Assembly (NCBI RefSeq): GCF_003334815.1 | Contig: NZ_QOWO01000006.1 | Reading direction: 5' to 3' (one strand) | Origin: Escherichia coli | GTDB lineage: Bacteria > Pseudomonadota > Gammaproteobacteria > Enterobacterales > Enterobacteriaceae | Length of the DNA: 64,000 nt | In this document: piece by piece, positions 8,934 through 8,949 of the stretch | Layout: every line of letters starts with the position of its first letter | Numbering within the stretch: position 1 is the first letter of the stretch | Made by a program: the position numbers and the translations under genes | The notes under the pieces: generated by a model | What the model saw: only the letters and a program-made list of their open reading frames with translations | Databases searched by the model: none | What the model was told of the DNA's origin: nothing

Positions 8934-8949
8934 AAGCAAACGTTTGCGA
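8934..8949. promoter_or_regulatory. PurR operator (PUR box) of purMN
   Basis: aAGCAAACGTTTGCGa contains the palindromic PUR-box core GCAAACGTTTGC, ~65 bp upstream of the purM start. Confidence 0.7.

Follow-up and report, generated by a model that had tools for sequence, protein, structure and literature searches.

A conserved PUR box in the purM-upp intergenic region of Escherichia coli and its register to the purMN promoter

The purM-upp intergenic region

The stretch of Escherichia coli DNA analyzed here, referred to as the window, is 64,000 nucleotides long, and its gene coordinates were taken from an identical E. coli genome, whose RefSeq annotation was mapped onto it. The operon formed by purM and purN is separated from the divergently oriented upp gene by an intergenic region of 324 bases, and within this region a 16-base PUR box lies 64 to 79 bases upstream of the GTG start codon of purM (Table 1). 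The 901-base stretch around the box is 95 to 100% identical to all 5,426 complete E. coli genomes. The purM stop codon and the purN start codon overlap by one base at position 7833, an arrangement consistent with translational coupling inside the operon. The open reading frame that a program had assigned to purM has five more codons at its 5' end and begins at a GTG codon at 8885; the annotated start was used for all distances given here, and the longer reading frame would shift the distance between the box and the start codon by 15 bases. The gene for the repressor, purR, is a standard E. coli gene whose locus lies outside the window.

Table 1. Features at the purMN locus and its surroundings (window coordinates)
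Feature	Coordinates	Strand	Basis
16-base PUR box (PurR operator of purMN)	8934..8949	-	sequence, ChIP-chip motif identity, position weight matrix, conservation
Perfect 12-base palindromic core	8936..8947	.	unique exact match in window
Inferred extended -10 (TGtTAGAAT) of the purMN promoter	8921..8929	-	conservation, sequence
Discriminator TGCGCCG (8914-8920) and predicted purMN start (G8914 or A8913)	8913..8920	-	inferred from -10
purM, 345 amino acids, GTG start at 8870, first gene of the regulated operon	7833..8870	-	RefSeq mapping, list of open reading frames
purN, second gene of the operon	7195..7833	-	RefSeq mapping, list of open reading frames
ppk1	ends at 7023	-	RefSeq mapping
upp	9195-9821	+	RefSeq mapping
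uraA	9907-11196	+	RefSeq mapping
hda	11291-11992	+	RefSeq mapping

The intergenic region also contains elements on the upp side. The palindrome TTGACTAAAGTCAA, at 9100-9113, is the FNR site described upstream of upp (PMC3266220). The upp promoter, of the form TTGCCG-16-TATAAT (9125-9152), matches at 10 of 12 positions, and after it comes GATTTTTTTTG, with eight consecutive T residues at 9160-9167 (the region as a whole spans 9125-9168). We take this arrangement of promoter and T run to be the one used for UTP-sensitive reiterative transcription at upp. A scan with Rfam found no RNA element near the box; elsewhere in the window it returned two matches to naRNA4, a nucleoid-associated RNA of the REP/BIME type, one at 37010-37086 (92.7 bits), which is present on both strands, and the other at 61797-61878 (71.8 bits).

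The 16-base box and its palindromic core

The box reads AAGCAAACGTTTGCGA on the plus strand and TCGCAAACGTTTGCTT in the direction of purM. The initial annotation had reported a palindromic core in the divergent region between purM and upp, and such a core is indeed present: the inner bases of the box form a perfect 12-base palindrome, GCAAACGTTTGC, which has a single exact match in the 64-kb window. The mean number of exact matches in dinucleotide-preserving shuffles of the window was 0.02, with 2 of 100 shuffles holding any match at all. When up to two mismatches were allowed, the window contained 2 matches against 6.2 expected, a count that indicates no enrichment and is uninformative; the sole match other than the core itself is GCAAACGTGTGC at 32282-32293, which falls within the PUR box of purC. 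The dyad center of the purM box is located between 8941 and 8942, at a central CpG step that is presumably the point of hinge-helix insertion in the crystal structure of PurR bound to its operator. In the purM direction, the box agrees with the classical consensus ACGCAAACGTTTGCGT at 14 of 16 positions and with the consensus of Cho et al., ACGNAAACGTTTGCNT, at 13 of the 14 positions that the latter specifies.

The other PUR boxes of E. coli, including those of purC and xanP (TGGCAAACGTTTGCTT) and those of the type found at purF, purT, and purHD (ACGAAAACGTTTGCGT), are likewise imperfect palindromes of 16 bases with a central CG, and many of them are located in or beside a core promoter. The purM box differs from them in having T for A at position 1 and T for G at position 15. 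It also differs in that its inner 12 bases are perfectly palindromic, with C at position 4, where many other sites carry A, G, or T.

Published evidence for PurR binding at purMN

Binding of PurR to this region has been mapped in E. coli K-12 MG1655 by ChIP-chip, in which the region bound at purM-purN spans 2,618,847-2,619,484 (Cho et al. 2011, PMC3159470, Table 1). The motif reported within it is TCGCAAACGTTTGCTT, at 2,619,140-2,619,155 (Cho et al. 2011, PMC3159470), which is the reverse complement of window positions 8934-8949. Since the purM coding sequence extends from 2,619,219 onward in MG1655 (PMC3266220), the published motif lies 64 bases before the start codon, as it does in the window. 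The 16-mer, its distance to the purM start, and the flanking genes are all shared with the K-12 operator, and no difference was found; the box is the K-12 operator itself, present in a second strain of E. coli (the window is 98 to 100% identical to E. coli genomes).

The occupancy of this site responds to purines. Enrichment of PurR at purM-purN was reported as a log2 value of 2.08 with adenine and 0.98 without it, and purMN was picked out by Cho et al., together with carAB and purC, for an adenine-dependent difference in enrichment (PMC3159470). In the same study, eleven genes of the IMP pathway were repressed in the wild type and not in a purR deletion mutant, ten of which had earlier been shown to be direct targets (PMC3159470); to judge from the known pathway, purM and purN would be among the eleven. 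Deletion of AAACGTTTGCTT from a high-copy-number clone weakened a protective phenotype that had been attributed to titration of PurR (PMC3266220). The primary operator papers are those of He et al. 1990 (PMC213288) and Meng et al. 1990, the second of which names purMN in its title. The claim of the initial annotation that purMN is repressed by PurR is therefore supported, the same 16-mer being the published ChIP-chip motif with adenine-enhanced occupancy.

Position weight matrix scan

A log-odds matrix for PurR was built from the 25 motif sequences in the table of Cho et al. that lie outside the window, and the three sites that lie inside it (purMN, purC, and yfgO/yfgC) were left out. With this held-out matrix, the purM box reached 16.9 bits in the direction of purM, a value inside the span of the 25 training sites (11.6 to 24.9 bits), and 15.1 bits on the opposite strand. 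It ranked third in the window, where only the purC box (18.3 bits) and a sequence internal to uraA (17.5 bits) scored higher. If bases are taken as independent, the expected number of sites of at least 16.88 bits is 0.125 for both strands of the 64 kb and 0.0006 for the intergenic region. In dinucleotide-preserving shuffles, 16.9 bits was reached somewhere in the 64 kb in 117 of 400 cases, and in none of the 400 did one fall in the 324 bases between purM and upp, for which the density-based expectation is about 0.0016. At the lower threshold of 12 bits, 8 sites were observed in the window compared with a shuffle average of about 5.

The matrix scan that the initial annotation had proposed as a check on the box supports it only when position is taken into account. 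By its position the box stands out, whereas its score is unremarkable when the window is considered as a whole, and the window-wide score was rejected as stand-alone evidence on account of the shuffles. Matches to a PurR matrix are not self-validating at the scale of 64 kb, and the weight of the argument rests on position and conservation.

Several other matrix matches were noted in the window. The purC ATG codon (32450) is preceded at a distance of about 155 bases by the PUR box with the sequence ACGCAAACGTGTGCGT (plus strand, 32280-32295), whose 18.3 bits were scored on the minus strand. This box lies just past the end of an open reading frame resembling bamC/nlpB and corresponds to the published purC motif for PurR ChIP. 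The published yfgO/yfgC (perM/bepA) motif, CCGGAAGCGATTGCCT, was found at 14231-14246 with a score of 13.7 bits. This motif occupies codons 16 to 21 of a 353-amino-acid open reading frame (14186-15247, plus strand) and is not intergenic, in contrast to the statement of Cho et al. that the PurR binding regions are intergenic only (PMC3159470). Two further matches, one at 24674-24689 inside a 479-amino-acid open reading frame and one at 11818-11833 inside hda, were treated as chance occurrences.

Conservation across species and strains

A single search for PurM in species-representative genomes yielded 80 loci from the Enterobacterales, Orbales, Pasteurellales, Vibrionales, Aeromonadales, and Alteromonadales, and the 300 bases upstream of purM were scanned at each with the held-out matrix at a threshold of at least 14 bits. 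A box reaching this threshold was present in 61 of the 80 gammaproteobacterial species (median best score, 16.6 bits), compared with 3 of 240 control pieces of purM coding sequence, also 300 bases long (median, 4.8 bits). In the species with a box, the site lay for the most part 60 to 80 bases from the purM start codon, and the distance from its center to that codon was usually 57 to 84 bases. Among the 80 loci, the box was weak or absent at those of Rheinheimera, Arsukibacterium, Alishewanella, Alteromonas, Pseudidiomarina, Shewanella, Parashewanella, Cognaticolwellia, Bowmanella, Pseudoalteromonas, Gilliamella, an Orbaceae genome, and a few others. The box is conserved across four orders. 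Positions 3 to 9 (GCAAACG), which include the central CG at positions 8 and 9 in their last two bases, were invariant in the 60 boxes tabulated, as were positions 11 and 12 (TT). The region upstream of purM in Edwardsiella (locus L040) apparently contains two boxes.

Within E. coli, the 36 bases that comprise the box and the -10 element are identical in 5,423 of 5,426 genomes, and the surrounding 901 bases show only 95 to 99% identity in 1,914 E. coli records. In an ungapped alignment of the Enterobacterales sequences anchored on the box center, the box and a block downstream of it, cTGtTAGAATtGCgCCG, were strongly conserved, and the DNA upstream of the box was unconserved. The DNA upstream of purM has otherwise diverged, the box and the -10 element alone standing out as islands of strong conservation.

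Promoter register

The conserved element downstream of the box has the form of an extended -10 of the TGnTAnnnT type, with the hexamer TAGAAT at 8926-8921 and the TG at 8929-8928. Its spacing from the box was compared among the 60 tabulated loci (Table 2).

Table 2. Spacing between the box and the -10 hexamer upstream of purM
Group (number of loci)	Box-to-hexamer gap (bases)	Hexamer	TG two bases upstream of hexamer
Enterobacterales (37)	7 in 37/37	TAGAAT in 37/37	37/37
Pasteurellaceae (7)	7 in 5, 5 in 2	TACAAT, TAAAAT, TATAAT	6/7
Vibrionaceae (14)	18 in 11, 17 in 2, 16 in 1	TAGAAT in 11	13/14
Aeromonas (2)	23 in both	TAGAAT	2/2

If the hexamer is taken as positions -12 to -7, G8914 (or A8913) would be the first base transcribed from the purMN promoter, with the box extending from about -35 to -20; both placements follow from the predicted -10, and the 5' leader would be about 43 to 44 bases long. 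The GC-rich discriminator block between the hexamer and the predicted start is conserved in the Enterobacterales and appears as aGCGCCG in the Vibrionaceae. A GC-rich discriminator is typical of promoters that are sensitive to ppGpp and to the levels of the initiating nucleotide.

With a spacer of 17 bases, box positions 1 to 6 (TCGCAA) occupy the exact place of a -35 hexamer. A generic scan for sigma-70 -35 and -10 elements called no promoter for purM and found that of upp alone; the purM promoter was missed because its -35 is poor, the place being taken by the first six positions of the box. The T at position 1, one of the two bases that set the purM box apart from other PUR boxes, falls at the initial base of a -35 hexamer at this spacing, which may perhaps be the reason for its retention. 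According to Cho et al., PurR sites are generally located between the -35 and -10 elements (PMC3159470), and the placement of the purM box agrees with this as well as with a figure in a 2024 review in which purMN is taken as the example of PurR blocking RNA polymerase.

Alternative explanations

Apart from repression of purMN, the region might act in two directions or through several sites, with the divergent upp-uraA genes controlled by the same PurR site or by the 16-mer inside uraA. We consider this improbable. In its favor, uraA mRNA was 17.6-fold lower with adenine and changed about 2-fold in the purR deletion mutant, a response listed as "direct or indirect" (Cho et al., PMC3159470). The uraA-internal sequence, ACGGCAACGATTGCGC (10283-10298, minus strand; 17.5 bits), is a single base away from the yieG site bound in ChIP, and PurR is known to form roadblocks within purB and purR (Cho et al., PMC3159470). 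However, the intergenic box precedes the upp start region (TATAAT at 9147-9152) by about 217 bases, a distance too great for simple occlusion, and the 16-mer in uraA is absent from the ChIP-chip table of Cho et al. (PMC3159470). In species other than E. coli, moreover, the score of 17.5 bits is kept in only 4 of 21, most scoring below 6 bits, and the synonymous positions vary freely. Control of upp-uraA presumably involves a pyrimidine-responsive mechanism at the T run of the initiation region, and adenine could act on it indirectly.

The 16-mer inside uraA was therefore largely rejected as a second operator, given its unconserved synonymous sites and its absence from the ChIP table, and, judged by its coding context, it may most simply be a by-product of the codons for GAIVAV. 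The identical sequence recurs at loci labeled Enterobacter, Rahnella, and Serratia, and in most genera its synonymous positions vary. That PurR bound at 8934-8949 or at 10283-10298 contributes directly to the adenine- and purR-dependent drop in uraA mRNA seems to us slightly less probable still. If it did, uracil uptake would be tied to purine status by way of either a roadblock or an effect on the divergent promoter.

A second alternative is that the palindrome serves mainly as the operator of another repressor of the LacI/GalR family (for example, GalR, RbsR, or CytR), with PurR in a secondary role. The operators of this family are alike in their centers (AAnCGnTT), and GalR ChIP sites overlap PurR operators at purR, as in the case of AGGCAAACGTTTACC. 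This alternative is very unlikely, however, and the published ChIP data already refute it in large part; purM is not among the 15 bound regions of the GalR ChIP-chip list. The ends of a GalR site are of the GTG...TTACA type, whereas the purM box has the GC/GC arms of a PUR box in addition to its 14 matches to ACGCAAACGTTTGCGT, and few places in the genome show a PurR occupancy as high as that at purM, which also responds to adenine (PMC3159470).

A chance palindrome without function, for which one could point to the 117 shuffled windows that reach 16.9 bits and to the lack of enrichment of the 12-mer when two mismatches are allowed, can be dismissed for practical purposes in view of the expectation of 0.02 exact 12-mers, the empty intergenic slot in all 400 shuffles, the recurrence of the box at the same place in 61 of 80 species, with its register to the -10 fixed, and the published in vivo binding of PurR.

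Repression of purMN by PurR

We are thus left in very little doubt that the box at 8934-8949 is the PurR operator of E. coli purMN, which has already been published, and no result of the analysis contradicts this reading. Both the observation and the interpretation in the initial annotation were correct, and the finding is an ordinary, known one; the cross-species and promoter-register analyses described here agree independently with the published reading of the site as a PurR operator.

A mechanism can be proposed from the arrangement of the site. A dimer of PurR, a repressor of the LacI family, binds TCGCAAACGTTTGCTT together with its corepressor, hypoxanthine or guanine. The operator ends 7 bases upstream of the predicted extended -10, in the place of a -35 hexamer and spacer, such that bound PurR would sterically exclude RNA polymerase and transcription of purM and purN would be lowered when purines are plentiful. 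Steric exclusion of RNA polymerase by PurR is the likely mode of purMN repression. The roadblock sites of purB and purR are bound by the same repressor and share the same motif with the purM box, but they are situated downstream of the transcription start (in the case of purB, within the coding region) and block elongation. In contrast, the purM box lies upstream of the predicted start, over the -35 and spacer, and initiation would be its likely target.

This geometry of repression is not universal. The purM boxes of the Vibrionaceae and Aeromonas have in common with that of E. coli the core CGCAAACGTTTxC, the gene that they precede, and an extended -10 of the TGtTAGAAT type, but the distance from the end of the operator to the -10 hexamer is 16 to 18 bases in the Vibrionaceae and 23 bases in Aeromonas compared with 7 in E. 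coli. In these groups the operator is set back from the promoter by about one to one and a half turns of the helix, where it still overlaps or abuts the -35 region. The predicted purM promoter of E. coli can be described as an extended -10 with an operator in the place of the -35, in a register that is fixed across the Enterobacterales, and the shifted operators of the Vibrionaceae and Aeromonas could be used for comparing geometries of repression by PurR.
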